NCBI GenBank assembly: GCA_004431415.1
Contig: QPMI01000692.1
Span: forward strand, 1 to 64,000
Direction of reading: 5' to 3'
Length of the DNA: 64,000 nucleotides
Source of the DNA: Cyanophora paradoxa CCMP329
Taxonomy: Eukaryota; Plantae; Glaucophyta
Shown here: piece after piece, positions 23,685 through 64,000 of the stretch
How positions within the stretch are numbered: position 1 is the stretch's first letter
Layout of the letters: the number at the start of each line of letters is the position of its first letter
Notes under the pieces: generated by a model
Seen by the model: only the letters and a program-made list of their open reading frames with translations
Database searches by the model: none
Told to the model about the DNA's origin: nothing
Translations under genes and position numbers: made by a program

Positions 23685-23716
<32 letters not shown>

Positions 23717-24333
23717 GGTGACGCCGACGGGCTTGGCGTCGACGAGGGGCTGGGGCTCGCCGACGGGCTCGGGCTCGGGCTCGGGCTCGGAGAAGGAGTC
23801 ACGGCCGTCGGATCCACGCAGACGTTGGAGACGTTGACGAGCGGCGGCTTGCAGGCGCAAATGGGGCGCATCGCGACGAACCAGTAGCCGGCGGGGTCCG
23901 ATGATACGAAAGAATTCCGTTCAGGGAACGCCTGTGAGCTTGGTGTCCTGGTGTCCCAGGGCGGCATTGTGGCGGTTGCCAGAAGCGACCGTCTGAGAAG
24001 ACGCTCGATCACGTTTACAGTAACGGGTCCAAGGTATTCGTCAATTTCGCTAGAGCAATTGTACGCGGTGGCGACCATTGACTGCCCCGCGGTGCAATTC
24101 TTCAAGCAGTAGCTTATCCCGTTGTACTGCTGCACCGTGCTCCCGACCGCGGTGCAGCCGCTGGTCGAGCATATCGGGCCGCCGGCGCCATCGACGATAA
24201 TCGAGCGGTCCACCGCGCAGCTGGCGCATCCGCTGACCAGCGCAGGTGCGAACGCCGCCAAAACAACGACGGAGAAGGCAGCAGCTGTGAAGGCCGGTCG
24301 CGTACGTCGCGATATCGATCGCCCGCGGCTCAT
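22222..24333 (-). CDS. Secreted/surface Cys-rich protein with (Ser-Pro)n hydroxyproline-rich stalk and hydrophobic C-terminus, multi-exon
   Basis: Signal peptide (AFSVVVLAAFAPALVSG), Cys-rich domain, SPSPSP tract, downstream exons (NITRIVVQG..., NFPGPYPSNIDVF...) and hydrophobic tail (GLLAIVAACLAMAAGFASAARI*). Confidence 0.6.
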
Positions 24334-37639: not shown

Positions 37640-37841
37640 CGCTCTTCAGCTGCCGGCGCGGTGCTAGCTATGCATGACGCGGGTTCTCGGCGTGGGGCAG
37701 GGGTTAGCACGTGCTGCGCTGTAGAGTAGCTCGGTGAGATGAGGAGATTCCGATGCGGTACTGCTTCAAAGGCCAACGCACTGCCTACTTGTTTTTTTGG
37801 CGGTGTGGGTGTACCCCACGAAGAGGGGGTAGCTCGCAAAG

Positions 37842-44100: not shown

Positions 44101-46204
44101 CTGAGGCTCCGGCGAACCCCCTTTCTACTCGTGAGCTAGGCCCGTCGCCCCGCAAAGAAGTGAACGCGGGCGAAATTAAACTATGCAGCAGCGCCCAGCC
44201 CGGCGACGGCGCGCGCGGCCGCCCCACGCGCGAAATCAGAAACGGCCGCACGTGTTTTCCAACGCCTTTGAGAAGACCGCCCCCGACCTTCAGACTTCCC
44301 GTCATCATGTTAACCTTGGCCATGAGCACGCCCTGTCGTGTACCCCCGCCCGACCGAAGACCTAATGATCAGCGGCCAGCTATTTATAGCGAGGCGAGCG
44401 AGGCTATATTTAGCGACCTTCGCGGCGCCCTTGATGTCGCCTTTGGCGAGGGCTTTCGCCGTGCTCTTGGCCGTGTTGTAGACCGATTTGATTTGCCCGG
44501 TCTGCGGGATCGATATCGTGCTCATGATCAGGTGGATCAGAGTCTGAAGGCTAGGTAGGTGCAGACGGCTGCTTCTGCCATACAGGCCCAGCCGGAGGCC
44601 TAGGTCGCGGCGCGGCGCGGCGCACCGCATGTTTGACTGCGTGCTTCGCCACCGATTTCACGCCCTTGCCCACCGTTTTCACGCCCTTCTGGATGCCCTT
44701 GCCGACCTGCGGGAGCCGTATAGGTAGCTTTAGTATAGCTTTATAGTATAGGCCTCTAGATCTAGATCTGAGCCGCTTGTAATATATCTAGCTTTACAGT
44801 TTAGCTATGTATAGGCCAGTCCTCTCGTATAATAATTACCTTGCTGACGCCCTTGGAGATGCCCTTGACGACCTGCACAAGCCGGGCCGCCCCCGGTTCA
44901 GCGCGGGCTCGAGTCCAGCGGGAGCCCAGTGGCCCCAGGCCTTGGCTTGCTCAAGTTTACCGCTCGCAATAAAATGGCCAGTAGAGGTATAGCTTTCTAG
45001 CATAGGCCTCTTAGCCGCTTATAGTTTAGTTTGGCTTTGTAGTGTAGGCCAGTCCTCTCGTATAATAATTACCTTTCTGACGCCCTTGGAGATGCCCTTG
45101 CCGACCTGCACAAGCCGGGCCGCCCCCGGTTCAGCGCGGGCTCGAGTCCAGCGGGAGCCCAGTGGCCCCAGGCCTTGGCTTGCTCAAGTTTACCGCTCGC
45201 AATAAAATGGCCAGTAGAGGTATAGCTTTCTAGCATAGGCCTCTTAGCCGCTTATAGTTTAGTTTGGCTTTGTAGTGTAGGCCAGTCCTCTCGTATAATA
45301 ATTACCTTTCTGACGCCCTTGGAGATGCCCTTGCCGACCTGCACAAGCCGGGCCGCCCCCGGTTCAGCGCGGGCTCGAGTCCAGCGGGAGCCCAGTGGCC
45401 CCAGGCCTTGGCTTGCTCAAGTTTACCGCTCGCAATAAAATGGCCAGTAGAGGTATAGCTTTCTAGCATAGGCCTCTTAGCCGCTTATAGTTTAGTTTGG
45501 CTTTGTAGTGTAGGCCAGTCCTCTCGTATAATAATTACCTTTCTGACGCCCTTGGAGATGCCCTTGCCGACCTGCGCAAGCCGGGCCGCCCCCGGTTCAG
45601 CGCGGGCTCGAGTTCAGCGGGAGCCCAGTGGCCCCAGGCCTTGGCTTGCTCAAGTTTACCGCTCGCAATAAAATGGCCAGTAGAGGTATAGCTTTCTAGC
45701 ATAGGCCTCTTAGCCGCTTATAGTTTAGTTTGGCTTTGTAGTGTAGGCCAGTCCTCTCGTATAATAATTACCTTGCTGACGCCCTTGGAGATGCCCTTGC
45801 CGACCTGCGCAAGCCGGGCCGCCCCCGGTTCAGCGCGGGCTCGAGTCCAGCGGGAGCCCATGGCCATAGGCCTTAGCTTAGCTAAGCTTAAATGCTCGCA
45901 ATAAAACGGCCGGTCCCCTGGTATAATAATTACCTTGCTAACTCCCTTCTTGATCTGCGGGCGGCGGGACCGTCGGGCTCACATTCAGCAATGCGTTGGA
46001 CCCAAACTGATACTCTTTCAAATAAAAAACGAAATCGAATTCGAACCTTCTTGAAGAGTTTTCTGAGAAATTCCGGTGGCCGGGGGGGGGGGGGGGGGGG
46101 GTCATGATCAGCACTAGTCGTGCACTCACGCACGGCCCGAGGGGGCCGGACGCGCGCGCGGCCGAGGGCGGGGGGGGTACGTCAGGGGCGCACTTGAACA
46201 CCAT
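41136..46204 (-). CDS. Unknown protein: cationic 11-mer K/G repeats, central PT-TG-like hydrophobic segment, KKG repeats, acidic PPAEEEQQQ tail; many microexons
   Basis: Spliced: MVFKKLFKK-IKKGVSK-(VGKGISKGVS/RK)x5-VGKGIQKGVKTVGKGVKSVAKHA...VPIVGDTAQTALDFEDAVK...AGDWKGALMNGAMLAAD...(KKGA)n...(PPAEEEQQQ)n. Confidence 0.7.
44812..45860. repeat. 233-bp tandem array (~4.5 copies); each unit is a 33-nt exon plus a 200-nt intron
   Basis: CCTCTCGTATAATAATTACC recurs at 44821, 45054, 45287, 45520 and 45753. Copies are nearly identical. Confidence 0.95.
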
Positions 46205-47349
46205 TTTCGATCACTCGAGCTCGACGTTACTCCCGATGTTCCGAAGACCGTTATCAGGTGAGAACGTAGGCGACCTGCGACGCTCATGATCAGACAAATC
46301 ATAAACAGATACAACGTTCGATCAGAAGCGGCCGCGGAGGCTCTAAGGGTATCGATGCATATGGATCAAGACAGGAATCTCCCAGTCCGGTCACGGCGTC
46401 CCACGGCCGAGCCGCGACCGAGTGGGGTGCGCGCGTCCGTACATGCATGCATATGTAGATGGTTATCGTACAGTGCGAAGTTAGCTGGCCGCGGCCGAGC
46501 GACCCGGCCGCGCGCGCTGCGCGGACTCTCGCACGGGCATGGGCACGTGCACGGGAGTGGGCCGGCCCGGGGACGGCCCGGCGGCCGCGGCACAGGCCCG
46601 CGCGCGACCATAGGGCGTGGTTTGCGCGTGGGCCGCGGTACTAGGGCGAGGGCCGGGGCTCACCGGCGATACGAAGCGGAAGCCTGCGAAGCGCGCGAGG
46701 AGCGCGTGGTCCAGAGCTCGAGGGGCACGCGCGCGCGGCGTGGTCCACGGTCCGGCGCGGCGGCTAGTCCGTCGACGATCGCTCCGCGGCCGAGGCTCGA
46801 CCGGCGCGCGAGTAGAGCTAGCTATAGGCGCCGATGCGCTGCGCGCGGCGGGGTCCGCCGACTCTGCGACAGTCGACTCCGCGCTGCGGCAGCTGCAGTG
46901 CGCAGTGCCGATGGTCGCCCGCGCCGGCGAATTCAAAGTCGCCCTCGTCCTCGCCGGGTCGTTCAAGTTCGAACGGGGGCGCTGCGCCCGCGCCCGCGCT
47001 CGGCGGCGAGGCTACCTATAGCTAGCTAGCTAGCTACCGCGGACCGCGGCCGGTAGACGACGGTAGTTCTGCTGCGCGGCCCGGCCGCTGCGCACTGCGG
47101 CGATGCGCATGCGCAGTGCGCAGTGCGCACGCGATGAGTGGGCAGCGTGGCCGAGCTGCATGCGCAGCCTGCAGCAGCGTGGCTGCGTGGGCCGAGTCCC
47201 GCGACCCGGTGACCGGCTGGTGGCAGCCTCCTTTCACCAAGTTTCACCAGCACCAGGGTACGCGAGCCCGGGGAGTGTACCGGTTCAGTGCGTACCGAGT
47301 ACGGTCTGTATGATCGGCGTGGAAATCCGACTCCGCAAATCCTCGCGGT

Positions 47350-47849
47350 ACGCAGTACTGCGGTGCAAGCTTGATGCAGTGAAAAGTAGTCCAGGCGGCA
47401 CGGGTACCGTGCGGCGTACGCGGCGCACTGCAGCTGCGAGGAAGCGGAAATCTAGAGGAGACAGCTAGAGAGAAGTGGTTCCATGCAGAACCGCGCAACG
47501 AAGAGCAAGGCGCGTACACGACGCACTGCGAGGAAGCCGAAATCTAGAGGAGACAGCTAGGGAGAACTGGATATCGATCCATCATGGCATGCAGAACCGC
47601 GCAAGGAATTCGAAGACGGGAGTGAGAGAGAAGTTATAGTTTTCCCCTCGAAAACCACTTTTCCCCCTCGACTTTGACGCTCGAAAGTCGAAGGCTGACC
47701 GGTCCACCGAGCCAATCGGAACGCGAATAACGGCTCATTTTTTTCTGTTGTTGCATACTGGACCTCGAAAACGGCCTCCTAGAAAAATTTTGCCTGAAGC
47801 GAGGGAACGGGAAGCAAGGGGGGAAGACCTTCTGTCTTTTTTCCCCCCT
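47350..47849. mobile_element. Partial, diverged, inverted copy of the MITE at 55165-56141 (family A)
   Basis: Reverse-complement similarity to ~55165-55830. Ends in TTCCCCCCT; the other terminus is not seen. Confidence 0.8.
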
Positions 47850-47929
47850 AGACTTCGAATTCAGGGCACTGCGGTCTTTCTTTGTCTTCAAATTTAAATA
47901 GCCTCGCTACTTCATTAATATATTCATCA

Positions 47930-48180: not shown

Positions 48181-48654
48181 ATATATAGAACAGCGAGGCG
48201 TGCCGGGCGCCCGCCCCAGGCGCGCCGCCCCGCCCGCCTGCTCGCCATCCAGCAGCCCCGGAGCATAGCAGGCATGCATACGGAAGTCCTGCAACACTTA
48301 AAACATGGCGCCGCCCTTGCGGCCGCTCGCTATTGCTACCGGAAGCTACCACTAGGAGAAGAATGCTAGCGCAGGTACGCGTGCCCGGCCGCGCCCGCGC
48401 CAGCGCCCGCTCTGCTCGTGCCCGCTCCACTCGCGCGCGCCGCCCGCTCCGCTCGCACGCGCCGCCCGCTCCGCCCGTGTCCACTCTGCTCCGCTCGTAC
48501 ACGCCTCCAGCGCCGCCCGCAGCCGCGCCCACTCCGTTCCGCTCGTGCGCGCCCGCTCCGCTCGCGCACAGCCACTCTGTCGTCGCACACCCCGAGTTCC
48601 ACGTTATCCTGCAAAGGGGATACATAAGGCGATGGAGCGGGAGGAAGGGTACGG

Positions 48655-48916
48655 ACATCTAGACCTAGGGCCCCCTTCGGGCCCGCGCGGGAGGGGTACG
48701 CCACCGCCGTCGCCTTTGGACCAAGGGCCGATAGGGCGCCCGTTGCCCGAAGGCGGCAGCGAAGGCGTACCCCCACCGGGGACCCGGAGGGAGCGCGCGG
48801 GGAGGGGTTTGTGCATCTAGACCTAGGGCCCCCTTCGGACCCGCGCGGGAGGGGTACGCCACCGCCGTCGCCTTCGGACCAAGGGCCGATGGGGGGCCCC
48901 TTGCCTGAAGGCGGCA
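48655..48916. repeat. ~100-bp GC-rich direct repeat (158-bp spacing) at the left flank of the viral element
   Basis: CATCTAGACCTAGGGCCCCCTTCGG...GAAGGCGGCA at 48656 and 48814. Confidence 0.85.
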
Positions 48917-49286
48917 TCGCTCGCATGCAGGTAAGCCCCACCAATTGCGCGACCTTCCCACTACCATTCTCAGTAAGCCCATTATCCATTTTCAAATTTC
49001 TCAGTAAGGCTCAGTAACAAACTATAAAATAGCACTGTATTTTTCAGACTTCTAACCTCTCCTTACTGAAACCAATCACGAAACCCTTTCATTCTTTATT
49101 TTTCTAATTCCTTACCATTCCCAGTAAGCCCTTTAACTTTCCCCCGATCTCTCAGTAAGGACAGTAAGACCCTTATTTTTACGAAATGTTCCCGATCGTT
49201 TCCGGACTGTTTTCAGTTAGCCAAATTGAAAAATCCAGGTAAACCCCACCAAATAAACAAGTGATCCCCACTTAAAGATATCCCGA

Positions 49287-49625
49287 ATGTATAATGTAAC
49301 AATGGCAAGCAATCAAGTAAATTTACCTGAGAGTAAGCGGTGCAATGTTTGCGATAAGGTAAAACCGGCATCGAGTTATGCATTGCAAAAGCGTAGCTCA
49401 GGGAATGTACTTTTGAATTGGAGATGCAAAGACTGCGACCGAGAGTATCACAATTACCTTTATCATTGTGTGTTAAAAACGCGTCCGAAGATCGAAGTAC
49501 AATCGAAGATATGCTCGCACTGCAAGATTGAGAAGCTTGCAAGTGAGTTTAATAAAAGACAAAGAACGAAGGATGGTCTCAACTACCAATGCCGAGAGTG
49601 TTATAGCAAAACACGTAAGAGTTAA
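49287..49625 (+). CDS. Viral double zinc-finger protein (CxxC...CxxC x2, HNH-endonuclease N-terminal/Stc1-like fingers)
   Basis: KRCNVCDKVK...WRCKDC and KICSHCKIEKLASEFNK...DGLNYQCREC. Confidence 0.75.
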   Translation: MYNVTMASNQVNLPESKRCNVCDKVKPASSYALQKRSSGNVLLNWRCKDCDREYHNYLYHCVLKTRPKIEVQSKICSHCKIEKLASEFNKRQRTKDGLNYQCRECYSKTRKS

Positions 49626-49851
49626 ACCGAATTTCATTTTATATTTTTTAAAGCAAGTTTGTGCTGCCGAAAATGCCCACCTGCACAAACTTGCGAGACC
49701 AAGGTAAGCCCCACCGACAAAGTACGACGATAGACCACGATTAATCGCAACTGGAACCACTCGCGCCCCGCCCACTATGCAAGATACATGCCTTTCTTAT
49801 GCATGATCTATGAAAAATAACAATAAACCCCTTTCTCATTCTTCGAATTCT

Positions 49852-50115
49852 TTACATAGGAGCACTCACAGGAATTTCGCTTGCCTTTCGAACAGTCCCC
49901 CGATTAAATGCTTGCTCTACAATCGCTTCCTTTGTGAGTGGAATCGGAATTCCAGCGGCAATACACGATTTAACTTCTTTGTCCACAATCTCGTCAGTTG
50001 CTGACATTGCGCGACTTTTCACTACATTAGTAATCCACTCAGCAGGGGAGAACGCAATATATTCCATTGCCGACTTTTCTGTATTCGATAGAATCACCTC
50101 AAATATGTTCGACAT
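49852..50115 (-). CDS. Small phage-like tail-fibre-associated protein
   Basis: LSNTEKSAMEYIAFSPAEWITNVVKSRA...IPLTKEAIVEQAF resembles (from memory) small hypothetical proteins encoded beside tail fibres in aquatic tailed phages. Confidence 0.6.
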   Translation of the reverse strand: MSNIFEVILSNTEKSAMEYIAFSPAEWITNVVKSRAMSATDEIVDKEVKSCIAAGIPIPLTKEAIVEQAFNRGTVRKASEIPVSAPM

Positions 50116-50137
50116 TCTTTATTCTAAGAAAAGAAAA

Positions 50138-51046
50138 TTAATCGATTGCGGTTATCATGGCTATATATAGTCCACATCTGTCTCTCCATGCATTCTGAAC
50201 AAACATTTCGACATAATCGCCCGGGGAAAGCAATATCACACCACCTGTTGTCATACCAGTATATACACTAGCAATTGGTATTCTATATCTGAATTGACTT
50301 ACTAAATTAATATTTATCTTTATTTCCAACATACCTGTGCCTGATGCTACATTTTCTGTTAATGCAGAAGCATGAACAACGTATATTCCTTTTGTTTGAC
50401 AGGTAAAACGACCCTCAGAAAAAGTTGATGTTCCAAGTCTTGTGAAACCAGCTGAATAGTCAACAAATTTTATTTCTGCACTTCCAGTTCCTCCTGTTCC
50501 TGTTCCATATCTTCCCATCATTGGGTGACTATTCATTTTAACATTGCCACTGAATGTGCCTGTGGTTCCAGTAATTCCAGCATTTCCTGAAAGAAGCCCT
50601 GAAAACGTCCCAGTGGTTCCACTTACTCCTCCACTTGCTGTAAGTCCTCCTGTAATAGTCGCACTTGTTGCTGTCACAGCCCCACTAACTGCAAGTCCAG
50701 TCCCGATCCATGCCCCGCCACTGTAAACTTGAAAAGCCGCTGATTTCCTATCAGCCGGATCGAAAGCTGTTTTATAATCCGCTTGACCTTCATATAGATT
50801 ATCTTTGGTGACCAGCCCCGACGATATTGCGGGTCGATTAGATACGATCATTTGAGTAGCTTTAACGATTCCACCAGCCTTGTCGGCTCTGAGTTCTTTG
50901 ACTCTGAGAATGGAAGTCTCATTGAAAGAATCGGTTTTCGCTGTTTCAGTCGAAGGGAATGACTCGTTTAGATCATATACAGTGTGTTGCACGTTATGGA
51001 CAGCACTGGCTGATAAGGAAAACACAGGCGTGAATACTGTCGACAT
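50138..51046 (-). CDS. Fibre protein with C-terminal C1q/TNF-like head
   Basis: G/T-rich shaft (GTTGTFSG x2) then GRFTCQTKGIY...VILLSPGDYVEMFV (C1q-like pattern). Confidence 0.7.
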   Translation of the reverse strand: MSTVFTPVFSLSASAVHNVQHTVYDLNESFPSTETAKTDSFNETSILRVKELRADKAGGIVKATQMIVSNRPAISSGLVTKDNLYEGQADYKTAFDPADRKSAAFQVYSGGAWIGTGLAVSGAVTATSATITGGLTASGGVSGTTGTFSGLLSGNAGITGTTGTFSGNVKMNSHPMMGRYGTGTGGTGSAEIKFVDYSAGFTRLGTSTFSEGRFTCQTKGIYVVHASALTENVASGTGMLEIKININLVSQFRYRIPIASVYTGMTTGGVILLSPGDYVEMFVQNAWRDRCGLYIAMITAID

Positions 51047-51066
51047 CTTTTAATTGCTCTTTATTA

Positions 51067-54000
51067 TTACGTGAGAATATTATTGTTTTGGAGAGGTCCG
51101 ACAGCAATCCAATGGAGTTTAAGGGTGCGATTAGCTGCTGTGACATCTGTGAAATTAGTTGATGCGAAAGTTGTGAATCTTACGATCCAGGTAAACTTAT
51201 TTTTTAAACCCACACGAGTATTATTAACATACTCAGGTCCGATATATACACAGTTGGTCATGTCCCAATTTACAGAGTTGAAGCTATTCTCGATAGAGGT
51301 AGTAATCACTGCATCACTATAAAATGGGGTAGAGAATACGACCGTTCCCGATAACTGAAAGGTTTCTCCTGCTGTGGAATTTCGATTTTCGAGGACTACA
51401 TCCGCTGTCCCTTGTTGCACATATGCATTTGCATTTACATAGCTACCGAAATTCGTGAGCAACTCGATGCTGTGATTGTGAGTAGGTGGCGAAGTAGGTG
51501 TGTTAGTTAAATCGTTATAGTCCCCGCTCGTAGCCACAGCATGCAAGTTTGGTGTATTAATCAGATCATTGTAGTTTCCACTTGTAGCCACAGCATGCAA
51601 TGTCGGTGCAATAGGGGTGTTAGTTAAATCATTGTAGTCACCACTTGTAGTCACAGCATGCAAATTCGGTTTAGTAAATAATCTATCCCATGTTCCATTG
51701 AAAGGGAGTGTAGATTCGGATATAATAACACTTTGATCGATCCAGCGAGGTATGTAAGTGGTGAAATCGGGAATTCTTGCTAAATCATAGTAATCACCTG
51801 TGAATGCTACACTACTCCAAGTAGGCTTCTCAGTAATATCAGTCCATTTACCACTAAATCCCAGCGGAACATCTGTGAGTTCTTTGTAGCTCACCTTTTG
51901 TTTCGGTATCGATAGCTCAATGGGCGAGAATGCACCCGAAAGCTGATTTTCAGAGGTGAAATACATGAGATTTTGACTATTAAGGAAGTCATCAGCGACA
52001 TTAAATTTGGAATTCGTGGGCAATTCGAGTCGACTTATTGGGGTGTTTGGATCTAATACATATTCAGCACCAAGGTGGATAACAGGAAAAGTTTGATCAT
52101 TCGGAGTGTCCACAAAGAAATTAGAAGCATGCACATCACCTGCAACAGTTCCACCTGTTAGTGGTAAATAATCATGATCGTGTGAATCAGGTGGATAGGT
52201 CGATGGGGGATTGACAATATGCTCCCACAAATGCTTGTGAACATTGGGTAATTCAAGTCGACTAAATGGAGTGTTTGGATCTAATACATATTCAGCACCA
52301 AGGTGGACAACAGGGAATGACTGATCATTCGGAGTGTCCACATAGAAATTTGGAGCATGCACATCACCTGTAAGAGTCCCACCTGTAAGAGGTAAATAAT
52401 TCCCAAGAGCCGACGTTAATTCGGTATCTGTAACATAATCTTCAAGAATTGCTGCAAGTTCTGTATCATCTACATAGTTTTTGCTTTCGAGGTAATCATC
52501 TGTTACCACACCTGAAAGGGTTGTATTGTGTAAGTTTTTCGCCGCCATTCTCTGATTGACTTCTAAGGCGCCACCTGTTGTTGTTTTAATCCATGCAATC
52601 TCGCATTTTCCGTGATCATCTGTGGGTTGTCCCACAACAGGAAGATAGTTTACAACTTTCTCCCTTGTGAACACAATCTTAGGTCTTGCTACATCATATG
52701 CGCTTTGATCCGTTACATTTACTTGAATTGCTGCTGAAAAATCCGCTTCTTGTCCTATTTCTCCTGGGTGATAATTCGTAACATAGATACTGGGGAAAGT
52801 ATCATTTACTCCTACATTGAAATCGCCACTATAAACTCCATTTACGATTGGATCCCGTGGTAATCTTACAGCAAGAGTTCCCACCATCGGTGTGCCTGTT
52901 TCACCTGTAAACGACCCATTCAGGTTAACATAATGATCATTCAAAAACAGCCTCTCAGGTGTATTAATGGATTGGTAAAGTGTGACCCCATTAAAAACAT
53001 TTCCGATTGCATTCAATTGCGCAAAAACTGGCTGCTCATCTATTTCCTCCCATGGGTGCCTGTGGTTACTATTGGTAATCTCTGAATAATCATGGGAATG
53101 TTTTCCTGGTGGGAAGGTTGAGGGCGGATTTGTGATATCTTCCCATATATGCTTATGGGCAAAATCTGTTATTTGATCTTTTGTGTGATTATGGGCAAAA
53201 TCTGTAATATCTGCTTTTGTGTGTTTTTGCTTTGCTAACCAATCTAAAACAACATTCGATGTCGGGTGATTTGGTAGGTTTGCTTCAATCTTCACAGTGA
53301 GATAATCGACTATTACATTACTTCCATTAATATTACTTGCCCATAGGTTACTGCTGTAAATGTTACTGGCATAAATATTACTGGCATAAATGTTACTTGT
53401 AACTGTAAGGTTTGATGAAATTGTAAGATTAGATGAAATAACACCACCTTTGAGAGACAGGTAATCATGAGTGTGTGGATCAGGTGGGAAGGTTAATGGT
53501 CGATTGGTGATATGCTCCCACAAATGCTCGTGAGAACTGGGTGGAAACGTTAAAGGGACATCTGTGAGTTCTTTGTAGCTCACCTTCTGCTTTGGTATAG
53601 TGAGTTCAATTGGTGAGAAATCACCCGAAAGGCGATTTTCAGAGGTAAAATACATGAGATTATGGCTGTTAGGTAAATCGCGATCGAGTCTGCAAATCGG
53701 GGTGTTGTCGCCTAATATAAATTCGGCGCCTGTATGCACGACCGGGTTTCTTTGGATATACATATTTGATGCACCTATTACAGGTGCCACAATGGGCACA
53801 TCTGAACATATAAGGTTGCAAGTGATGGAGAAAATGGTTTTAGGGGCGAATAGATTGCAAACAAAGGTCACAGTAGCTGGATCAATAGTAGGATCGACAT
53901 TTGAACAGATCTGAAACATCCACCCTCCCACACAGCTGCAATTTAAATTGCGAAAGGCTGTGCCTGCCATTGCATCCACATAGCCAATCCCATTTGCTAT

Positions 54001-54189
54001 GTCATATATGTGACCAAACTCGTAACCAAAAATGTCATTCCATAGGTTAGAAGCCATAGCTCCCATCACATACCCTTTTAGATCTACTATCAGGTCATTG
54101 GATTCACTGGGTATATTGGCATGGGTTATATAAAATTGATTATCCAAGACAGCATTCTTTATTGTCGTTTCTACTATGGGTTCAGTCAT
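51067..54189 (-). CDS. 1040-aa viral fibre/adhesin with phage tail-fibre repeats
   Basis: HxH...I repeats (HKHIWEDITNPP), YLPLTGGTLTG x2, (V)ATSGDYNDLTNTP x3-4, SN repeats, and a C-terminal GTVVFSTPF lectin/gp53-like domain. Confidence 0.8.
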   Translation of the reverse strand: MTEPIVETTIKNAVLDNQFYITHANIPSESNDLIVDLKGYVMGAMASNLWNDIFGYEFGHIYDIANGIGYVDAMAGTAFRNLNCSCVGGWMFQICSNVDPTIDPATVTFVCNLFAPKTIFSITCNLICSDVPIVAPVIGASNMYIQRNPVVHTGAEFILGDNTPICRLDRDLPNSHNLMYFTSENRLSGDFSPIELTIPKQKVSYKELTDVPLTFPPSSHEHLWEHITNRPLTFPPDPHTHDYLSLKGGVISSNLTISSNLTVTSNIYASNIYASNIYSSNLWASNINGSNVIVDYLTVKIEANLPNHPTSNVVLDWLAKQKHTKADITDFAHNHTKDQITDFAHKHIWEDITNPPSTFPPGKHSHDYSEITNSNHRHPWEEIDEQPVFAQLNAIGNVFNGVTLYQSINTPERLFLNDHYVNLNGSFTGETGTPMVGTLAVRLPRDPIVNGVYSGDFNVGVNDTFPSIYVTNYHPGEIGQEADFSAAIQVNVTDQSAYDVARPKIVFTREKVVNYLPVVGQPTDDHGKCEIAWIKTTTGGALEVNQRMAAKNLHNTTLSGVVTDDYLESKNYVDDTELAAILEDYVTDTELTSALGNYLPLTGGTLTGDVHAPNFYVDTPNDQSFPVVHLGAEYVLDPNTPFSRLELPNVHKHLWEHIVNPPSTYPPDSHDHDYLPLTGGTVAGDVHASNFFVDTPNDQTFPVIHLGAEYVLDPNTPISRLELPTNSKFNVADDFLNSQNLMYFTSENQLSGAFSPIELSIPKQKVSYKELTDVPLGFSGKWTDITEKPTWSSVAFTGDYYDLARIPDFTTYIPRWIDQSVIISESTLPFNGTWDRLFTKPNLHAVTTSGDYNDLTNTPIAPTLHAVATSGNYNDLINTPNLHAVATSGDYNDLTNTPTSPPTHNHSIELLTNFGSYVNANAYVQQGTADVVLENRNSTAGETFQLSGTVVFSTPFYSDAVITTSIENSFNSVNWDMTNCVYIGPEYVNNTRVGLKNKFTWIVRFTTFASTNFTDVTAANRTLKLHWIAVGPLQNNNILT

Positions 54190-54226
54190 TATACTCTATT
54201 ATGGAATACTACAAAAATTAAGGTTG

Positions 54227-57200
54227 TTACATAACGTTTGGAACATGTTCATATATTCTCCCTTCTCGCTGTGCCATTTCCGCCATAAAGTCTCTGTCAT
54301 TATTCATCGTTTGCTCTGCCAATTCTTGTGCTCGTGATTTTTTGGGTGCTGCCCTACTTGCTGGTGGTTGATCAGTTCTCACAACACTAAGACCATGCCC
54401 CTCGGCTGACCTCACCTCTAACCCCACATCTCCTTCGGCTGCTTGGGTCACATTCAGCTCAGGTGTGGAGTATTTATTACCTGCTCCTGCAATGGTTCTG
54501 TCTATGCATGCACAACACAAAGCTCGGAATTTGTATGCAAGCACAAGCCCAAGAGCACCGAGAATCGGCAAGAGAATGATAAGCACTAAATTTCCTGGAT
54601 CCGATCCGGGTGCTCCGACTGGATTGGTAGGATTTGTGGGATTATAAGGTGGTGTGTTTGGATCTGGATTAGTTGTAGGGGGATCTTGTGAATCGGGATC
54701 TGGATCAGGGGTATTCGGATTGGGATCGTTTGGCGGCGGCTCTGTCGACCCTGCTAATGTGGTTGGCGCTGTGTATGCATTCGCAAACACGATGGGAGCC
54801 GTCGCTGGATTTCCTGTGGAGGATCCTGAGATTGCACCATAGGTATCTGCGAGATACTTGTATAATTCCTGTGTCACAGGTGGATTGCTCACAGATCGAC
54901 ACACCCAAATATTGCATGTGGTATCATAGACTGTGTCCCTAATAAAGGGAGGTAGAGCCGTCCCACTGAATGACTCAAAGAATCCATTTCGCGATAGCAA
55001 TCGATGCCCTGCATCACAATTTCCGCCCTCATAATATTTGGTAGCCGAAATCGCACCTTGCACATAAATATTACATGTCGAGTGCAATCCAATGTTATTT
55101 AGGTTAGGAGTATATCTGTCATCGAGACGGACAGTGCACACCCATGGGGAAGCGGTTTTTTGCAAGGGGGGAAAAGAAGACCGAAGGTCTTCCCCCCCTT
55201 GCTTCCCGTTCCCTTGCTTCAGCCAAAATTCTTCTATGAGGCCGTTTTCGAGGCTCAGTTTGCAACGCAGGAAAAAAATGGGCCGAAATTCGCTTGCAGC
55301 GACACGTGTTTGTCGCTGCGGCCGTCCATGCAAAAAAAGGTTTTCGAGGGCGAAGACCAGTTTTCCTTGACTTGAAGCCTGGAAACCAACTTCTCTCTCA
55401 TTCCGATCTTCGAATTCCTTCCGCGATTCTAGCGAAGACCAGTTTTCCTTGACTTGAAGCCTGGAAAGCAACTTCTCTCTCATTCCGGTCTTCGAATTCC
55501 TTCCGCGGTTCTGCATGGAACCAGTTCTCCCTATAGCTAGCTGTCTCCTGTAGATTTCGGCTTCCTCGCAGTGCGTCGCGTAAACCTTGCTCTTCGTTGC
55601 GCGGTTCTGCATGGAACCACTTCTCCCTAGCTGTCTTGCTCGATCTCCTCTAGATTTCCACTTCCTCGCACTGCGCCGCGTACGCCGCACAGAATTACTT
55701 AAAAATTCTCCCTAGCTGTCTTGCTCGATCTCCTCTAGATTTCCACTTCCTCGCAGTGCGCCGCGTACGCCGCACGGTACCCGTGCCGCCTGGACTACTT
55801 TTGACTGCATCAAGCTTGCACCGCAGCACGTGCACCGAAGCACGCGCAGCCCGTGGGCCGGATTGGCCCGTACCGCGTAGCTTAGGCCGTGCAACACAGT
55901 TGATGCGCAGCGTTTCAATCTCAATCTGGCCTTTCATTGAGGCTTTTCTTTATTCGGTTAGATCGCAGCGTCTGCTTATCGGGCCTTTTCTATTCTTTTC
56001 AATCATATGCAAATATAATCTGTTTCTATCTTTACTACTTCAATTGCAACCTGCCGCGCGCGCTGGGCCGGGGTCGATCTAGATCTGCCCCTTGCATGTT
56101 CGTGCCACTACTACTCTTTCATTAGATCCAGATTCCCCCCTTGCACCCCCGGCGCGCCAAAACGCGGCCGGGCCACTAGTATATATTTCTTATCGCCCAC
56201 TTCGATTACATCTGTATTTGGGTGGCTGTCAAGCTGAGTCCAAACTGCATCATATCTGGAAGTGTAATAAACTAACAGACCATCAGTAGAAGATGTGAAA
56301 GCAAAGAAGGTCATAAAGTCCGTGGATCCAAAGAAGTCAGCATTGGTCGATGTTAGGGTGACTCTGGGATAGCTCATGTTGACAGTCTCAGAAGGATATG
56401 GAATATATGAGGTGTAATTGCGATTGAACAGGTAATAGTGAAATCCATCTGAGACATTCGAGTGAGTGGGCAAGGTGACTGTTAAGGTCTTACTGCGATT
56501 TTCAAACGTGTTCTGTATGACAATGTTGCAAGAATTAATATATCGAGAATCGAAAAAGTAATTATTTGTGACTCTATTATCGATCACAGTCGCATTGGTT
56601 CCATTAAACACGAAATTCTGCCCATTGATCCTTGTAGTATATAGGTCGGTCACATCGAGTGGATACTTTATTTTTAATCTATCAGTATCATCATACTGGG
56701 GAGTCTGACCCACAGCTGACCACCCTACTGTGTATGGGGGATATTCAAATTTCGCTGTGGTCGCATTATATGTATAGAAGTAGACACCGACTGGGTAGCC
56801 ATTGATATAAGTATGAATCGTAGGATCGGCTACAAGATTAAAGCCTGTCGTGGTGACATTCTCTGCTCGAAAAACGGTAGTATATTTGGGTGCTGGTGTT
56901 ATGCCTCCTGAGGGCTGGGCGAAATATCGATTGGTATCTACTATGGTAACAGTTGGGGGGGCATTAAATGCCGATGTGAAGGTAAAAGGTATACTAATCG
57001 ACTCTGATGGAGTATATCTATAATAGTAGCCATTTACCATACTTAATAATTCTGAGCTCGGGAATGACCTGCTACCTGTCTGAGTCATAGGGGTAAACGC
57101 TTTGATATTGTGGTATGATATACTGGGTGTCGGGGAGTTTACCAAAGCGACAGCATCTGCGAAATCAGACTTTGTTATATAGAGCTCTTTAAGATATTCT

Positions 57201-58882
57201 CGTTTGAAGGGGTTTGTGGGTTCGCCAATCTGTATATTGGAGGCTGGGAAGGGGACGACATTATTTACCTGTAAATCTCGGTAAACCTTTACTCTGGGTT
57301 TGCTATCGAATTCAGGGGTGATATAATTGATATTCAGAGTGAAACTCAGATTAGCTATGGTGTTCAGTGAGGAGTTCCGGATAATGAGAGTATTTGTTCC
57401 AACATATTGGAACAAAACCTGAAACCCTGTGGAGGTGATATTATGGACATATGCCTTGTTATATTCATCAGTGAAAGTGATTTGATTATAGTAAACTGTA
57501 TGATCGACCAAGGTAACCGTAGGTAAAATCTCGAAACCTGTGACACCCAATTGATCCCAAGTAAATGTGTATGTTGGACTGTCTGCATAAACTACATAAA
57601 CTTCGAGACCTGCGAATTTCTGCGGGTAGCCTGTGACCTGGTAGGTCTCAGTCCGCGAAACCGAGCGGGAAAGGTTACTATTAAAGTCAGTGTAGCTGAT
57701 CAGTGCATTATCACTGGTGAGAATCTGATTGGGTCGGAGTGAGTGATTAAATGGAAGGATTAAATTGGAGGCAAACATGGAAACTCCATGCACCTCTGAC
57801 CATCTCAGATTCGATAAACCAACCCGGTATGTGTTATCAGTCGCGGGGTAAATGTTCCTTTTCGATAGAATATGGGCTAAGGTAATTGCAAGCGTTCCAT
57901 CTGCTGCAAACAGAGCATTAATTTCGGATTGCAAAGCCGCGATTTCAGTAGTGTGGGTCGTGAGGGTTCCATCCTGGCTGGAATCTTTGGTGTTCTTGCT
58001 CCTCTCGAACTCCAAAAACGCCTTTACGATGTCCTTGCCCAAAAGATCGTTTATATTGTCTCTGGTAATGTAAACATGGTCTGTTCTCAGTGCCTGTTTC
58101 TCTGTGGTAAAAGCCGGAATCTCCTCTGCAAATGATATAGTCGTTTTATCAAGTGCTAAGGATCTCACATTCGGAGCATTGGCGCCAATTATATCCACAA
58201 CGTTCCCATTTTCGACAATTTCTAAGGTCGGTTTCGCGGGGTCTAATGTGAAAACACCCTCTGTTATCTGGGGAACCGATTCGCTCTTCTGAATCACAAA
58301 GGATTCGATGTTTAGGTTACAGGTTGCGACATTGGTGGCGAAAAACGACTCGGACTTAAGCGAGTTTACGTTAAGAGTATTTGTAGATATGTTACTTGCT
58401 GTAATATTACTCGTCGTTAGATTACCTGCTGAGAGATCATGGACGACCTCTACCTTTGTTTTCCGCGTGGATACTCCCGCTATAAGTGTGCTATTATCCA
58501 CGATTCTCATAGCTGCATTTTGGAAACCGCTCTCATCTTGAATGAAGAAGTTTAAGCGACCTCTATCGAATGCTTTTGGGATGTTCCTACGATTATATCG
58601 CACCGTTTTCGGTAGCTGGCGGGTTGCCTGAATGCTGGCGACTCTGTTTCGTTCGTTATCATCAAGTAAAAAGTCGATTCCAAGTTTATGATCCCCTTTC
58701 TCGACGTTCATTAACTGCAAAGCTGCGGGTCTGCTCGGTGTCCCACTGACTGGATCTTCGCGGTCTGCATTGAAGTTTATTTTCAGAGACCCGCGAATTT
58801 CAGTGTTTACCTGATCAGTGTCCTCTATCTGAGTGGTCGAATTAATAACTCGTGCATCTGGTCGCGGATTCAGGAACGACAT
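54227..58882 (-). pseudogene. 1224-aa fibre-like protein with C-terminal TM anchor, split by a MITE
   Basis: Removing 55165-56141 plus one TGCA joins ...RFGAPGVQ to KTASPWVC... in frame (3675 nt). Contains IYPATDNTY...RW, FTSAFNAPPTV-type lectin-like domains, a Pro-rich stalk and TM LVLIILLPILGALGLVLAY. Confidence 0.85.
55165..56141. mobile_element. Host MITE (977 bp, family A) inserted at TGCA within a viral gene
   Basis: TGCA|AGGGGGGAA...TTCCCCCCT|TGCA. Internal ~80-bp tandem duplications; homologue at 47350-47849; excision restores the ORF. Confidence 0.93.
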
Positions 58883-58925
58883 CCTCTTTATAAACAAAGA
58901 AGATATATAAGAAGTATATAAGATA

Positions 58926-60419
58926 ATGAAGACCGTTCTCGCTTTGAGTGGAGGGGGGTCGCGCGGAATAATCGAGGCTGCTATAATGGCACAGATTGAA
59001 GCCCAAACCGGTAAACGAATCCAACAGCTATTCGACTGCTTTGCGGGAACATCCACAGGTGGATTAATCGCGCTCCTATTGAATATCAAGGGAACCGATG
59101 GCGCCCCTAAATATACTGCCACTGATATTCTGGCGCTCTACAAAGCGAAACTACCGCTGATTTTCGCGAATCCACGAGTGCTTACATCGATTGTACAGCG
59201 CCCAAAGTACGAAGCAACTAACTTAGAAGCTGTGGCTCTGGAACTCTGCGGCTCAGCGACCATGGCGGATCTCTATAAACCCACCATCGTGACTGCGCTC
59301 GACACGGTCTTAATGTCCCCCGTTTTTATTTCAAGCAACGATGAAGACATAAATGGGATGCTTGTGCGCGATGCTGCAAGGGCTACCTCAGCTGCTCCGA
59401 CCTATTTCGAGCCGAAACAAGTCACAGTCGCCGGAAGAACATACTGTTTAATTGATGGTTGCATGAGTGGAAATAATTCGCCCGGGGTTTGTGGTTACAC
59501 ATTCGCCCGCACTTTATTCGGAAACTCTTGCGAGGAGGAGCTTATAGTGGTCTCGATTACGGCGGGTCATGTCCAAGACTCTGATAAGGCGACATCTGGA
59601 TATTCGTACGACACTATGAAAAATTGGGGGATCGTGCAATGGATGCTAAGCGCCACAGGATCGCCAATTCTCAGCATGTTCTTAGAGTCGAGTGATCTAA
59701 ACGCACACGTAAAGCTACTGAAACTTTTACCCAGAAACGATGATCAGAATTACGATCGCTACTATAAGCTGAGCGTTCCTTTACCGAAAGATAAAATGAC
59801 CCTCGATACTATCACAACGACGCACCTGCAATATTTGGAAACGGAAGCGCTCGCGTTTGTTTCCGCACAGCAAACGTATTTTAATGCGATGTATTCAGTG
59901 CTGACGATGAATATCTCAGAGGGCGACGTTCCCATTATTAATCTGTCCGGGTGCACAGATGTAAGCGCACCCCCGGAATCCAATTGGGTGCCGCTCGATA
60001 AAAGCGCTTTTATTGCGGAATTTGGCACAGCTTCTGATGCCCGCTGGTCAAATGCTACGGGGTGGGTGGGCTTTACCAACCCGCCGCAAGGTAGTAGGTC
60101 GGGAGGCAATTATTTACGCATTGATTTTCCGCGTCTGTTTATGCTTTCCTCTATAAAAATGAAGCCGGCTGCAAATGGAAACTACATTAAAACGTTTGAG
60201 ATCGATTACCAATTAACTCCGGGAGTGTCGGCACTTGTCACATACACAGAAGCCGGCGCGACGAGAGTGTTTACCAATGCAAATCAAATAGCCGGAAGTG
60301 CTGATCCCGACGAACATTTCTAAGCGAACCCGAGATCTATTAGAACCCTCGTAATCTGGGTGCTCTCGACGAACGTAGCTTCGGCATGCCGAATTGATTT
60401 CGAGGGCTACTACGTGTGA
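58926..60419 (+). CDS. Patatin-like phospholipase fused to an F5/8 type C (discoidin) domain; in-frame TAA at 60321
   Basis: LSGGGSRG, AGTSTGG, ATSAAPTYF, LIDG. C-terminal YLRIDF...YIKTFEIDY...FTNAN...HF*ANPRSIRTL...CRIDFEGY ends with TGA 7 bp from the next gene. Confidence 0.88.
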
Positions 60420-60426
60420 ACAGCGC

Positions 60427-61272
60427 TTAATCCGTGATCACTTCGAGCTGGAACGAGAATGAGAGACCGTTTATATCCGCAACAGAGCCCCGCCATTTTC
60501 GAAGCGAAATTGTGAGACGATCTAAATCGAGTTGCGATGTGACATTTACGTAAGGGATGCTTGCGCTCGGTTCGTGGTAAAAGGAATATCTACCAAAGTC
60601 CGAGTTCATCTGAATTCGCAATAGATAGGAGTCGTCGACATTGTTCAGTCTACCTGTAACCGCTGCGAATTTGGTAAAAGGGCGGAGCTCTTCGATATCA
60701 AGGTAAATATATGGAATTGCATTAAAGTCGACCATTTTCGGGCATATAATCGCGTAGCGACTGGGGTAATCTCTGAGTGGAACCGGCACTGGTTCTGGTG
60801 TGCTGGCGTAAACCACTCCGGGTTCTATGCCGAGACAATCACAGAACTCCTGGTCTGAGGACTCTAATGTAAACGGGCTATTCGGAGATGAGAAAACGAA
60901 GCGGTTCGTAGACAGAGCGAGAGAAAAGGAGACCGGGAAGAGACCGAGTGGATTAAAAGAACCGCCCGCAAATCCGAGTATAGCATCACTGTTTAGAGCT
61001 CTCTCTTTCGGATATCGTTCGTTATCAGCATCGACGTAATAATAATCGTTTACGCTGGGAATCGGTGCTATCATTTTGGATGCGGGGATTACTGTGGACT
61101 CTTCGTTTAGAAGCGTTATAGTTATTGTCTGATCGGACGGAACAACATAAGAGCTATTGGGAATCTCAGCTGATAGCACACGAAATCGCCTTACATTATT
61201 AAGGCGCGTTTTCAAGTGCAGCACGCCGTTTTCAAGGTCTCTACTGTCGCAATTTATTGTTATTCTTTTCAT
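60427..61272 (-). CDS. Minor capsid (penton) protein 1
   Basis: ITINCDSRD...LNNVRRFRVLSAEIPNS...YIYLDIEEL...LDRLTISLR...FSFQLEV: PLV/NCLDV single-jelly-roll penton pattern. Confidence 0.8.
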   Translation of the reverse strand: MKRITINCDSRDLENGVLHLKTRLNNVRRFRVLSAEIPNSSYVVPSDQTITITLLNEESTVIPASKMIAPIPSVNDYYYVDADNERYPKERALNSDAILGFAGGSFNPLGLFPVSFSLALSTNRFVFSSPNSPFTLESSDQEFCDCLGIEPGVVYASTPEPVPVPLRDYPSRYAIICPKMVDFNAIPYIYLDIEELRPFTKFAAVTGRLNNVDDSYLLRIQMNSDFGRYSFYHEPSASIPYVNVTSQLDLDRLTISLRKWRGSVADINGLSFSFQLEVITD

Positions 61273-61288
61273 AATCTATTATAGTAAG

Positions 61289-62215
61289 ATGAAAGAATAC
61301 CTGAGCTTTTCGAACGATGATCGCGATGAGGAGTTTACTCAGCCAAACCAGTATGTAGTGACATTACCCCGTCGCTATGACAACGTAAAATCGGTGCGCC
61401 TGGTGCAGGCAACGGTTCCCAATGTTCTTTCGACTGTGACGAACGATATTGATGCCACTGGTGCAACCATCGAGCGCATGGAACTCTATTTCTCGGTCAC
61501 AGCTTCGGATTCCGGATTCGTGACCATCACAATCCCCAAAGGATTTTACACCAAAGACGACCTTGCCGCAAAAGTCACAGAAAGACTCGAAGCAGCTCGC
61601 CTTTCAGATTTCGGTGGAAAATATATTAAATGCCGCTATAATACTACTTCAAAGATCTATGAGTTTTTCAGTGATAGTAACTTTTGGTTCAAGTTCTCCA
61701 AAGCTTCCCCTGAAACACTCAGAAAATCCAGTAATCGCAAAGCAATCGCTAAGAAACTCGCAATATTTGGTTTCAAAGATATTCAGCTATATGTTTACGA
61801 GACATTTACCCCTCTTGCAAGCGATACATTCCTTGTGTTTAATCCTGGGACGGGAACTGTGACACTCAATCGACGCATTCGCGGCTATACTCGTGGAGAT
61901 GAGACCCCGGCGGCGATGATCTGGCTATATATTGACGAATTTGCGCCGTTTATTCGCTCAGTCAACAAGCACGTCGATGGTTATTTCATGCGCATTCCAA
62001 TCCCACAGGAACTCGAACATGGTGATATCTACCACTTCGACACGTCCACTACGGTGCCTCTCATTCGTGAATTCCGCGAATTAAAATAGTTCGACCGCTT
62101 GACGATTAAACTCATCGACCATGATGGCGCTCTCTTAGATTTCGGGGTTTGGGCGCGTTATTTCACTTTTGAAATCGAAACCTACGACGCACCGCCCGAA
62201 ATGAATTTCTACTAA
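61289..62215 (+). CDS. Minor capsid (penton) protein 2; in-frame TAG at 62087
   Basis: NDDRD...PNQYVVTLPRRYDNVKSVRLVQATVPN...ITIPKGFYT...IWLYIDEF. After the TAG it continues FDRLTIKLIDHDG...FTFEIE, matching the penton-1 C-terminus. Confidence 0.82.
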
Positions 62216-62262
62216 GCCCTTTAAATTATTTTCTGATCCCAAAGATAAGAGAAGAAACGCTC

Positions 62263-63576
62263 ATGGAGACTAACAGCCAATTCCAGCGCCCAACGCTGAA
62301 ATCTATGCTCACCACCGATGACTACAAGGATTATTTCCTAAACAAGTCGCTGGTCATTGGAACGTCCTCTGGCACTAAGCCACTTCGAGTTCTGGTCGCC
62401 CCCGATACCGAACCAACCAATGCCCTCGGTAACCGAGTAGTTTTCAAAATCCCCCTCTACCATTTCCTGAATGGTCTCGCGCTGCAACTCGACCTTAACC
62501 CGATCACCCTCACTGATCTCACGAATGGTATCGCTGGAACTACTGGCTACCTTCGCGTCATTGGATCGCTAATTAAGCGCATTGAAATCTCTCACGCTTC
62601 ATTCCGCTATGTTGTCCCAGAAGATTTCGTCACCCAGTATTTTCTACTGATGACTGAACAGGGCGAACTCGATAAGAAACTTCGCTATGTGGGTGGTCTT
62701 GTCGGAACCGCTGGTAACACTGTCGGTGGAACCTACGAAATCGATTTACCCTCTCCTTTCGAGAAGGCGATGTTCCCACTTTGCGCTCTGAACTCTGAGA
62801 TCACAGTAGAAATCGAATTCAAGGCGCAAGGGGATGGTATTATTGAGGACACGAACAATGTTGCTAATATTGCGGTAACCAACAATGGCGCTTCCCTTCA
62901 AGTGCTGAAACCCCGCGTTATTTGCAAGGTCGTAAATGCCGATTAGGCGGTTGTATCTGAGACCATTGCCCGTGTTAAATCGACTGGCATCGCGATCCCC
63001 TACAACGAAATCGGTTTCCTACACACAGATTTCCAGCCGACCGCCTCCGGTTCGCGAGTCAATCTCTCGCAACTCACAGGTGCGGGTCTCATCCACACTC
63101 TCGTATTCTCTGTGCGCCAAAACGCGAAGACGAAGGTGAACAACGGAACTCTCTCGGTTCTGGCTCCTCGTGCACTCAGAACCAACGCTGTAAGCTTCTA
63201 TGTAGAACTCAACAATAACCGCCTTTACTCGAATACTTCGCTTCCTCTCATGATTGCCGCGACCGAACTTCAAGAGAAATATAATTCGGCGATCTTTACC
63301 GAGAGCACAAGCTACCCCGCTCTCACTGGCATTTATTTCGGTGCTGGAAACGGAAAAGCGTCGCTTCTCAACCAAGAGAATACGGGCTACATCGATGCCA
63401 CAGGCACATCGGCGTTCGATCTGGTCTTCGAATTCAACGGTGTCACAACGGCAGCCGAAGGTTCATCAGAATGGTATGCGGGTGCCGCTTATCAGAAGAT
63501 GCAAATTCAGTGCATTGCCCTCGCTCATAACATAATGATAATCACAGGCGACGGTATCCGAAGAGTATCCGCATGA
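62263..63576 (+). CDS. Double-jelly-roll major capsid protein (437 codons); in-frame TAG at 62944
   Basis: ORFs 62263-62946 and 63112-63576 share a frame with a single TAG between them. VVFKIP, LIKRIEI, FPLCALNSEITVEIEF and C-terminal IALAHNIMIITGDG are typical of PLV MCPs. Confidence 0.85.
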
Positions 63577-63621
63577 TTACCACATTCAGTCTTATTTTTC
63601 TATTGTTTTTATAGTGAAAGA

Positions 63622-64000
63622 ATGCAAAAAGGGACGACGCCCATGGATCTCGAGGAATGGAACCCGAAACAGAGGGTGAAACTTCCCGCACGATTTCTCC
63701 TTTTGGCGAAAACCAATTGTGGTAAATCGGTATTCTTAAAGTGGCTGATCAAAGAACTCGAAGACCAGATCTCGTATGTTCTGGTTTTCTAGCCTACGAG
63801 TTTCAACGGTTTCTGGGGACAAATTACAGATGAAGTGCATGATACCTGGAAACCGGAATATGTGGAGTCGATCATAGAAGCCCGCAAAAAAGCCATCATC
63901 GCGGGTAAGAAACCAAAGAATATTCTCATTGTGCTCGACGATTGTTTGGAGTCCGGAACTATCGATCTTTCGCGCGATCATTTGCTAAATAAATTGATGG
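63622..64000 (+). CDS. A32/FtsK-HerA family genome-packaging ATPase (3'-truncated); in-frame TAG at 63790
   Basis: Manual translation: RFLLLAKTNCGKSVF (Walker A)...YVLVF*PTS...KNILIVLDDC (Walker B). Missed by the ORF track. Confidence 0.88.

Follow-up and report, generated by a model that had tools for sequence, protein, structure and literature searches.

Results

Gene content of the element

We analysed a window comprising positions 1-64,000 of contig QPMI01000692.1 from the glaucophyte alga Cyanophora paradoxa CCMP329, the right-hand end of which carries the left arm of a Polinton-like virus (PLV); the element's right arm lies beyond the window. The host portion (1-48,930) has a GC content of 65.4%, the element (minus a later insertion) one of 43.8%, and the best GC change point falls at 48,959. 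Host sequence to the left looks eukaryotic and intron-rich, with a TadA-like deaminase split across two reading frames, and long intronless open reading frames (ORFs), closely packed, occupy the element side. An earlier note on this DNA had described a sharp compositional switch and intronless genes to its right, and both descriptions are borne out. From left to right, the element runs from a zinc-ribbon gene and an 87-aa ORF through two fibre-like genes (302 and 1,040 aa), a long interrupted gene, the patatin gene and a pair of minor-capsid-like genes to the major capsid protein (MCP) gene and the start (126 codons) of an A32-like ATPase. The features of the locus are as follows.

47355..47852, minus strand: host-flank relative of the Helitron2-like insertion
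48637..48919: GC-rich direct repeat of 125 bp (period 158) with 41-nt inverted arms, adjoining the left border
48925..49286: AT-rich left end of the element without coding sequence, marked by the GC change point, repeats and multicopy depth from about 48,956
49287..49625, plus strand: CxxC zinc-ribbon protein, 112 aa, with PHROG matches
49852..50115, minus strand: ORF of 87 aa, no family match
50138..51046, minus strand: fibre-like protein, 302 aa, with a Gly/Thr-rich shaft and a possible C1q-like head
51067..54189, minus strand: protein with phage tail-fibre-like repeats, 1,040 aa
54227..55160, minus strand: split gene, C-terminal 310 codons, with a Pro/Asp/Asn-rich linker, one predicted transmembrane helix and a short tail
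55161..56180, plus strand: non-autonomous Helitron2-like insertion, 1,020 bp, non-coding
56181..58882, minus strand: split gene, N-terminal 900 codons of 1,211, fibre-like or attachment protein (putative)
58926..60419, plus strand: patatin-like phospholipase with a fused discoidin (F5/8 type C)-like domain; in-frame TAA at 60,321
60427..61272, minus strand: minor capsid (penton-like) protein 1, 281 aa, open frame
61289..62215, plus strand: minor capsid protein 2, 308 codons, TAG at codon 267
62263..63576, plus strand: MCP, predicted double jelly roll, 437 codons, TAG at codon 228
63622..64000, plus strand: A32-like packaging ATPase, first 126 codons, TAG at codon 57, ending at the window edge

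Capsid and packaging module

The MCP was modelled with its stop read as X from a six-sequence alignment (pLDDT 64.6). Structural alignment with VIA-align matched the model to a PBCV-1 capsid chain with Z 24.8 and a root-mean-square deviation of 3.6 over 329 residues, and gave lower Z values for faustovirus (23.8), iridovirus (18.1), Sputnik (14.6) and mavirus (14.0). The top 16 rows of matches are all viral jelly-roll capsid or scaffold proteins, and Foldseek (E 1.7e-18) agrees with a double jelly roll. The earlier note had staked its reading on this fold, and the predicted structure of the MCP is indeed a double jelly roll. The 50 structural matches listed include no chain identified as a PLV capsid, and their order therefore says nothing about the lineage of the MCP. 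At the sequence level the MCP has no Pfam match and five relatives among 1.84 billion representative proteins, the second best of which is a Cyanophora paradoxa gene. MCP pattern searches gave no locus among viral contigs, and none of 74 candidates in metagenome contigs was confirmed. P0004 gave no sequence match in the PDB.

Minor capsid protein 1 scores 0.97 in Atlas to the Preplasmiviricota, DUF5901 and Sputnik V18/19 clusters, with a recognition value of 1793, below the 2300 mark; its low-confidence model (pLDDT 46.6) matches minor capsids and pentons in Foldseek with E 4e-6 to 9e-4. Minor capsid protein 2 is paralogous to it (E 4e-7) and has a DUF5901 match at E 0.027. These data argue with moderate strength for two paralogous penton-like minor capsid genes. 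The ATPase fragment matches Pox_A32 with E 2.7e-4 over its 126 codons, under the curated cut-off, and is 32% identical to a Pox_A32 protein, itself above the cut-off, of IMG/VR contig L001, the one locus recovered from 52 candidates in the ATPase search. L001 (37.8 kb), a small DNA virus, carries an A32 ATPase, a primase-helicase of AEP type and an ORF of 1,438 aa; it is otherwise unrelated to the element, whose other proteins found no match in it by tblastn.

A complete morphogenetic module had been claimed for the element. All four of its genes are present, and three of the four are broken by a TAG codon. None of the 11 element ORFs scanned matched a polymerase or integrase family, in line with the earlier note; there was no protease match and no tRNA gene in the window, and no Rfam match across 44-64 kb.

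Copy number and probable residence in the host genome

Of 24 public runs listed, all under a single organism label, 17 contain more than half of the sequence words from 55-64 kb; none of those holding the element is listed as RNA. Three runs labelled as DNA or unlabelled (X1, X6 and X8) were compared with the window over 46-64 kb. Element contigs reached depths of 2,247-2,483 in X1, 3,011-3,884 in X6 and 263-297 in X8, against 53-91, 77-110 and 5.4-5.6, respectively, for the flank; element depth is 25-55 times flank depth, a ratio that is not a copy number, GC bias depressing the depth of the flank. High depth begins between 48,835 and 48,956, in agreement with the border placed by the earlier note. 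Some 540 places are variable across these 18 kb, and the flank contigs of the same three runs equal the window with no other letters. We take the element to be present in tens of copies.

Within the element lies a 1,020-bp insertion that divides one 1,211-codon gene. A perfect 13-bp inverted repeat is placed asymmetrically, with one arm at the 5' end of the insertion (55,161-55,173) and the other 35 bp short of its 3' end (56,133-56,145). The 5' hairpin is strong (z -5.3, with 0 of 200 shuffles as stable) and the 3' hairpin weak (z -1.6, with 10 of 200 shuffles folding as well). The insertion sits after TTTT and has no target duplication, with at most one base shared at the empty site. That empty site is recorded directly: a joint from 55,159 to 56,180-56,181 occurs in runs X6 and X8, with matching loose ends in X1, so sister copies exist that lack the 1,020 bp. 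By coordinate arithmetic, both parts of the split gene form one 1,211-codon frame across the empty site. Positions 55,165-55,829 of the insertion are 69-79% identical, on the opposite strand, to 47,355-47,849 of the host flank, where the relative shares the 5' hairpin and high depth is seen in the bin 47,201-47,800.

Asymmetric inverted repeats, 5' and 3' hairpins and insertion after TTTT with no duplication are the published features of Helitron2 (PMC3627910), and the insertion is Helitron2-like. The claim of a host miniature inverted-repeat transposable element (MITE) with a relative in the flank therefore stands as regards the relative and fails as regards the class, a MITE being ruled out by the asymmetric inverted repeats, the two hairpins and the missing target duplication. 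Helitron-1N1_CRe, a non-autonomous Helitron2, is organised likewise, with its 5' terminal repeat in a hairpin and the subterminal 3' partner just upstream of the 3' hairpin (PMC3627910); it too inserts after TTTT without target duplication (PMC3627910). Unlike the Helitron2 elements described there, in which the 3' repeat ends about 20-30 bp from the end, the repeat here ends 35 bp from it (PMC3627910). A host element inside a viral gene, together with the recorded empty site, is our best evidence for the residence of this copy in the host genome, and with the GC switch and the multicopy variants it makes integration likely.

In-frame stop codons

In-frame TAG codons occur at 62,087 in minor capsid protein 2, at 62,944 in the MCP and at 63,790 in the ATPase, one per gene. 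In all four runs compared over 62,040-63,850, every contig covering these places has sense codons there, specifying three different amino acids; for one TAG the main contigs depart from the window at two neighbouring bases. No contig of the four runs carries a TAG allele, so the evidence for the stops is the window sequence itself. Differences between window and contigs in this stretch amount to 37 rows, 4 within the three stops and 33 in 29 other codons, of which 21 are synonymous and 8 missense. Single-base changes in the stretch are expected to give 20-23 missense changes per nonsense change (about 4-5% stops), whereas stops make up 3 of the 11 amino-acid-changing differences (P 0.007-0.028). 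No frameshift was found in about 13 kb of coding sequence, and a CpG ratio of 1.30 in the core speaks of no methylation-type CpG loss. A thin contig of run X18 (depth 3.4) equals the window at 62,276-62,445, with no difference across 10 sites that separate the main contigs; the minority haplotype of the window is real. Nine element proteins or truncated pieces had no exact-sequence match in the protein collection.

A fourth stop is likely in the patatin gene. This gene gives a Patatin match with E 9e-21 and has both the nucleophile (Ser) and the catalytic Asp motifs. Its C-terminal domain has an Atlas F5/8 score of 0.95; with or without read-through it has no Pfam match, and it has no homologues and a non-significant PDB match. 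The frame stays open for 31 codons beyond the TAA at 60,321, a length unremarkable here (28-36 codons for three other ORFs). We regard the TAA as likely premature because the C-terminal domain looks cut short and because the extra codons hold what we take to be the pattern of the last two strands of the discoidin fold. All three TAG codons and this probable fourth stop fall in plus-strand genes of 58.9-64 kb, which account for 4.1 kb of the 13.2 kb that code for protein (chance about 0.009), a clustering that was noticed before it was tested.

Other features of the left arm and of the host flank

The tandem pair abutting the border (48,637-48,919) has units 89% alike and, judged by contig depth, is low-copy (150-350 in run X1 versus 1,574 at 48,956). 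It could be a host repeat, possibly used as a target, or the outermost viral terminus or an under-sequenced viral hairpin end. The AT-rich left end that follows carries short repeated motifs (repeats D2 and D3) and is likely a terminal inverted repeat, its partner being expected outside the window.

The zinc-ribbon protein matches PHROG families of Lar-like proteins and endonuclease VII zinc regions (E 7e-14 to 7e-10). Its gene is flanked by 20-nt direct repeats 465 bp apart (49,233-49,717) and is skipped in some copies, with a joint from 49,250 to 49,715 in runs X1 and X6; it is a variable cassette. A contig of run X18 in this region (49,036-49,401; 27 differences at depth 14.7) terminates in an A-run and adapter. 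It derives from another copy and is possibly a transcript; that X18 holds RNA is itself a guess, and expression cannot be concluded from its few contigs.

The 302-aa protein, with a C1q match at E 0.036 (under the cut-off), and the split gene, whose N-terminal part has a weak H_lectin match (E 0.012), presumably act as fibre or attachment proteins. The 1,040-aa protein has internal repeats and matches PHROG tail and tail-fibre families with E 5e-13 to 8e-4. At the 3' end of the split gene, a proline-rich linker, the predicted transmembrane helix (hydropathy 2.75 over 19 aa) and a short charged tail are odd for a capsid fibre, and the product may be a membrane-anchored or internal-membrane protein. 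Depth summed inside the element is lowest at 50,201-50,800 and 56,801-57,400, where low-depth contigs and loose ends occur, and the fibre regions seem to be the most divergent part between copies. The roughly 8 kb of fibre and attachment genes had been called large for a PLV, an assessment that does not hold: most PLVs encode fibre-like proteins of more than 1,000 aa, up to 3.9k aa (PMC12220804).

The host flank contains inverted segmental duplications (20,655-21,485 and 28,616-29,641 versus 37,810-39,635, 89-92% identical) in the region of a long intron-rich gene that by eye is WD40-like, and a tandem array at 44,812-45,911 with a 233-bp unit in 4.7 copies, 98% alike. A minus-strand ORF at 41,136-42,152 encodes Lys-Lys-Gly-Ala repeats and then about 20 Pro-Pro-Ala-Glu-Glu-Glu-Gln repeats. 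Another, intron-poor ORF (23,479-24,333, minus strand), in a stretch of lower GC, has a signal-peptide-like start, a Cys-rich domain and Ser-Pro repeats; by these features its product resembles an algal cell-surface glycoprotein, and it had no exact-sequence match in the protein collection.

Discussion

The window very probably holds one copy of a multicopy PLV family, likely integrated in the genome of C. paradoxa and likely unable to make particles by itself. Particle formation is likely lost because the capsid and packaging genes hold stops and a transposon splits the longest gene; at least the longest gene has been lost from this copy, and probably the capsid and packaging genes have been too. 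The family itself is already known and in print. Table S2 of PMC10120064 lists C. paradoxa endogenous viral MCPs, among them two gene calls that match the MCP of the window; a comparison by eye with gene_37737 of that table gives 12 differences in the first 239 residues, an identity of about 95%. Table S4 of the same work records 366 MCP hits in the C. paradoxa genome, in clusters of 272 and 94 (PMC10120064), and PLV-like sequences have been noted in C. paradoxa contigs (PMC8502044). With these near-identical published MCPs, the double-jelly-roll prediction and the empty site, the proposal of an endogenous PLV in a GC-rich algal genome is upheld. The earlier note had not remarked on the in-frame stops, the patatin-discoidin gene or the splitting of one gene by the insertion.

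Replication of an intact copy would depend on genes of the right arm, beyond the window, and its ATPase would package the DNA into an icosahedral capsid of MCP trimers with penton-like vertices. Attachment would proceed through fibres and lectin-like domains, and the patatin lipase would breach a membrane; the roles of the ATPase, capsid, fibre and lipase genes are taken from their families and from PMC12220804. Integration would be the work of an rve integrase, the only kind of integrase recorded among glaucophyte elements, where 85 of 156 have it (PMC12220804). The host Helitron2-like insertion and the nonsense changes would then have accumulated, and the present copy would at most be carried by proteins of its sister copies.

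Several observations weigh against this interpretation. Among the 32 contig pieces listed, with 6,194 more beyond the listing, none bridges the host-virus junction at about 48.9 kb, the depth ratio is subject to the GC bias described above, and the one flank ORF tried, having no exact match in the protein collection, gives no direct link to the species. Confidence in the minor-capsid model is low. As for the stops, the TAG alleles are missing from the contigs of all four runs over 62,040-63,850, published cases show that premature stops of this kind can come from faulty assembly (PMC10120064, PMC8547959), and plain decay fits poorly with stops in excess.

The stops are nonetheless rather more probably real than not, selection and recoding of the kinds considered below included. 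That they are errors of assembly, polishing or later handling, the Helitron2-like insertion being the only true damage to the copy, is a less probable alternative that nevertheless deserves serious weight: the TAG allele is absent from the contigs of four of four runs, one TAG requires two adjacent base differences, and stops of endogenous PLVs and virophages have vanished on re-sequencing (PMC10120064, PMC8547959). Both near-identical C. paradoxa MCP calls of PMC10120064 are also incomplete, one running off-frame after about residue 240 and the other beginning at 130. Random errors, however, would bring about 20 missense changes for each stop, and the coding sequence shows no frameshift; the minority haplotype is real, the X18 contig being exact across its 10 sites; and contigs lose rare alleles, so a missing TAG is expected for a single copy. 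If the stops are real, they may also have been favoured, host selection having kept knock-outs of the particle-building genes and left the rest nearly unchanged. The share of stops among the amino-acid-changing codon differences and the confinement of all three, with the probable fourth, to plus-strand genes of the right-hand part agree with such selection, which we nevertheless consider improbable: the data come from a single copy, the pattern was noticed before testing, one stop is already enough to end particle formation, the fourth stop is no more than probable, and missense changes near contig ends may be unlisted.

Readthrough or reassignment of TAG, which would leave the structural genes whole and gate their output by suppression, seems very improbable. 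All three core stops are TAG, which makes up 0.39 of the possible nonsense changes, and the nine intact gene ends examined avoid it, eight being TAA (including that at 54,227) and one TGA. Yet the three codons, one per gene, face three different amino acids in the sister copies, the window has no tRNA gene, the probable fourth stop is TAA, and the copy is broken by a transposon as well. Reassignment of TAG to one amino acid is rejected, given the three different residues. Of 719 literature matches on stop-codon readthrough, the 10 listed include no PLV work, which does not imply its absence. We likewise give very little credence to the viral stretch being a giant-virus fragment, or a free virus mis-joined to host DNA. 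The MCP model does lie nearer to PBCV-1 and iridovirus than to Sputnik and mavirus, and the junction is not bridged among the pieces listed; against this stand the compact penton-penton-MCP-ATPase block, the host transposon within a viral gene with its empty site, the high depth and many alleles in runs of both 2012 and 2024, and the publication of this MCP family as small endogenous viruses. There is, finally, a small chance that the stops are non-random, placed one per particle-building gene by selection or as an amber-readthrough gate while constraint holds the remainder of the copy, and that the glaucophyte elements form an unclassified PLV lineage with a capsid nearer to that of giant viruses than to that of virophages.

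Under the favoured reading of a disabled, integrated PLV copy, the value of the locus as a discovery is small, the family being in print. It provides a gene-by-gene map of a glaucophyte PLV's left arm, and the empty site dates the order of events, integration first and the host Helitron2-like insertion after it. It is also a test case for the question raised in PMC10120064 whether stops in endogenous protist viruses reflect decay or assembly error.

The closest known systems are the published C. paradoxa endogenous elements, which share the MCP, lipase, discoidin, and tail-repeat and lectin-like fibre genes and are protease-free. Table S6 of PMC12220804 counts 156 glaucophyte elements, with Pox_A32 in 139, a lipase in 89, an rve integrase in 85 and DNA_pol_B_2 in 49, and with no protease and no tyrosine recombinase in any; the PLV MCP profile detects 2 of them. 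Fusions of discoidin and patatin have been described in glaucophyte PLVs as well (PMC12220804). We see no difference in kind from these elements; the stops and the Helitron2-like insertion of the present copy are not in the published material examined. With PLVs more widely (Gezel-14T, cryptophyte PLVs and the Trimcap B group) the element shares a double-jelly-roll MCP, minor capsid, A32 ATPase, long fibre genes and a GC shift, and two penton genes are reported for several Trimcap B members (10.64898/2026.06.19.733378); unlike PLVs generally, it has a very divergent MCP, with five protein relatives and no Pfam match. It differs from the endogenous mavirus-like elements (EMALEs) of Cafeteria in that its MCP is not nearest to the virophage fold, the window has no protease gene and the insertion is of rolling-circle type. 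Like the EMALEs (PMC8547959), it belongs to a set of AT-rich, multicopy endogenous viruses in a GC-rich protist that host transposons have struck, and it shares with them fragmented genes, some of which in the EMALEs proved to be assembly errors (PMC8547959).

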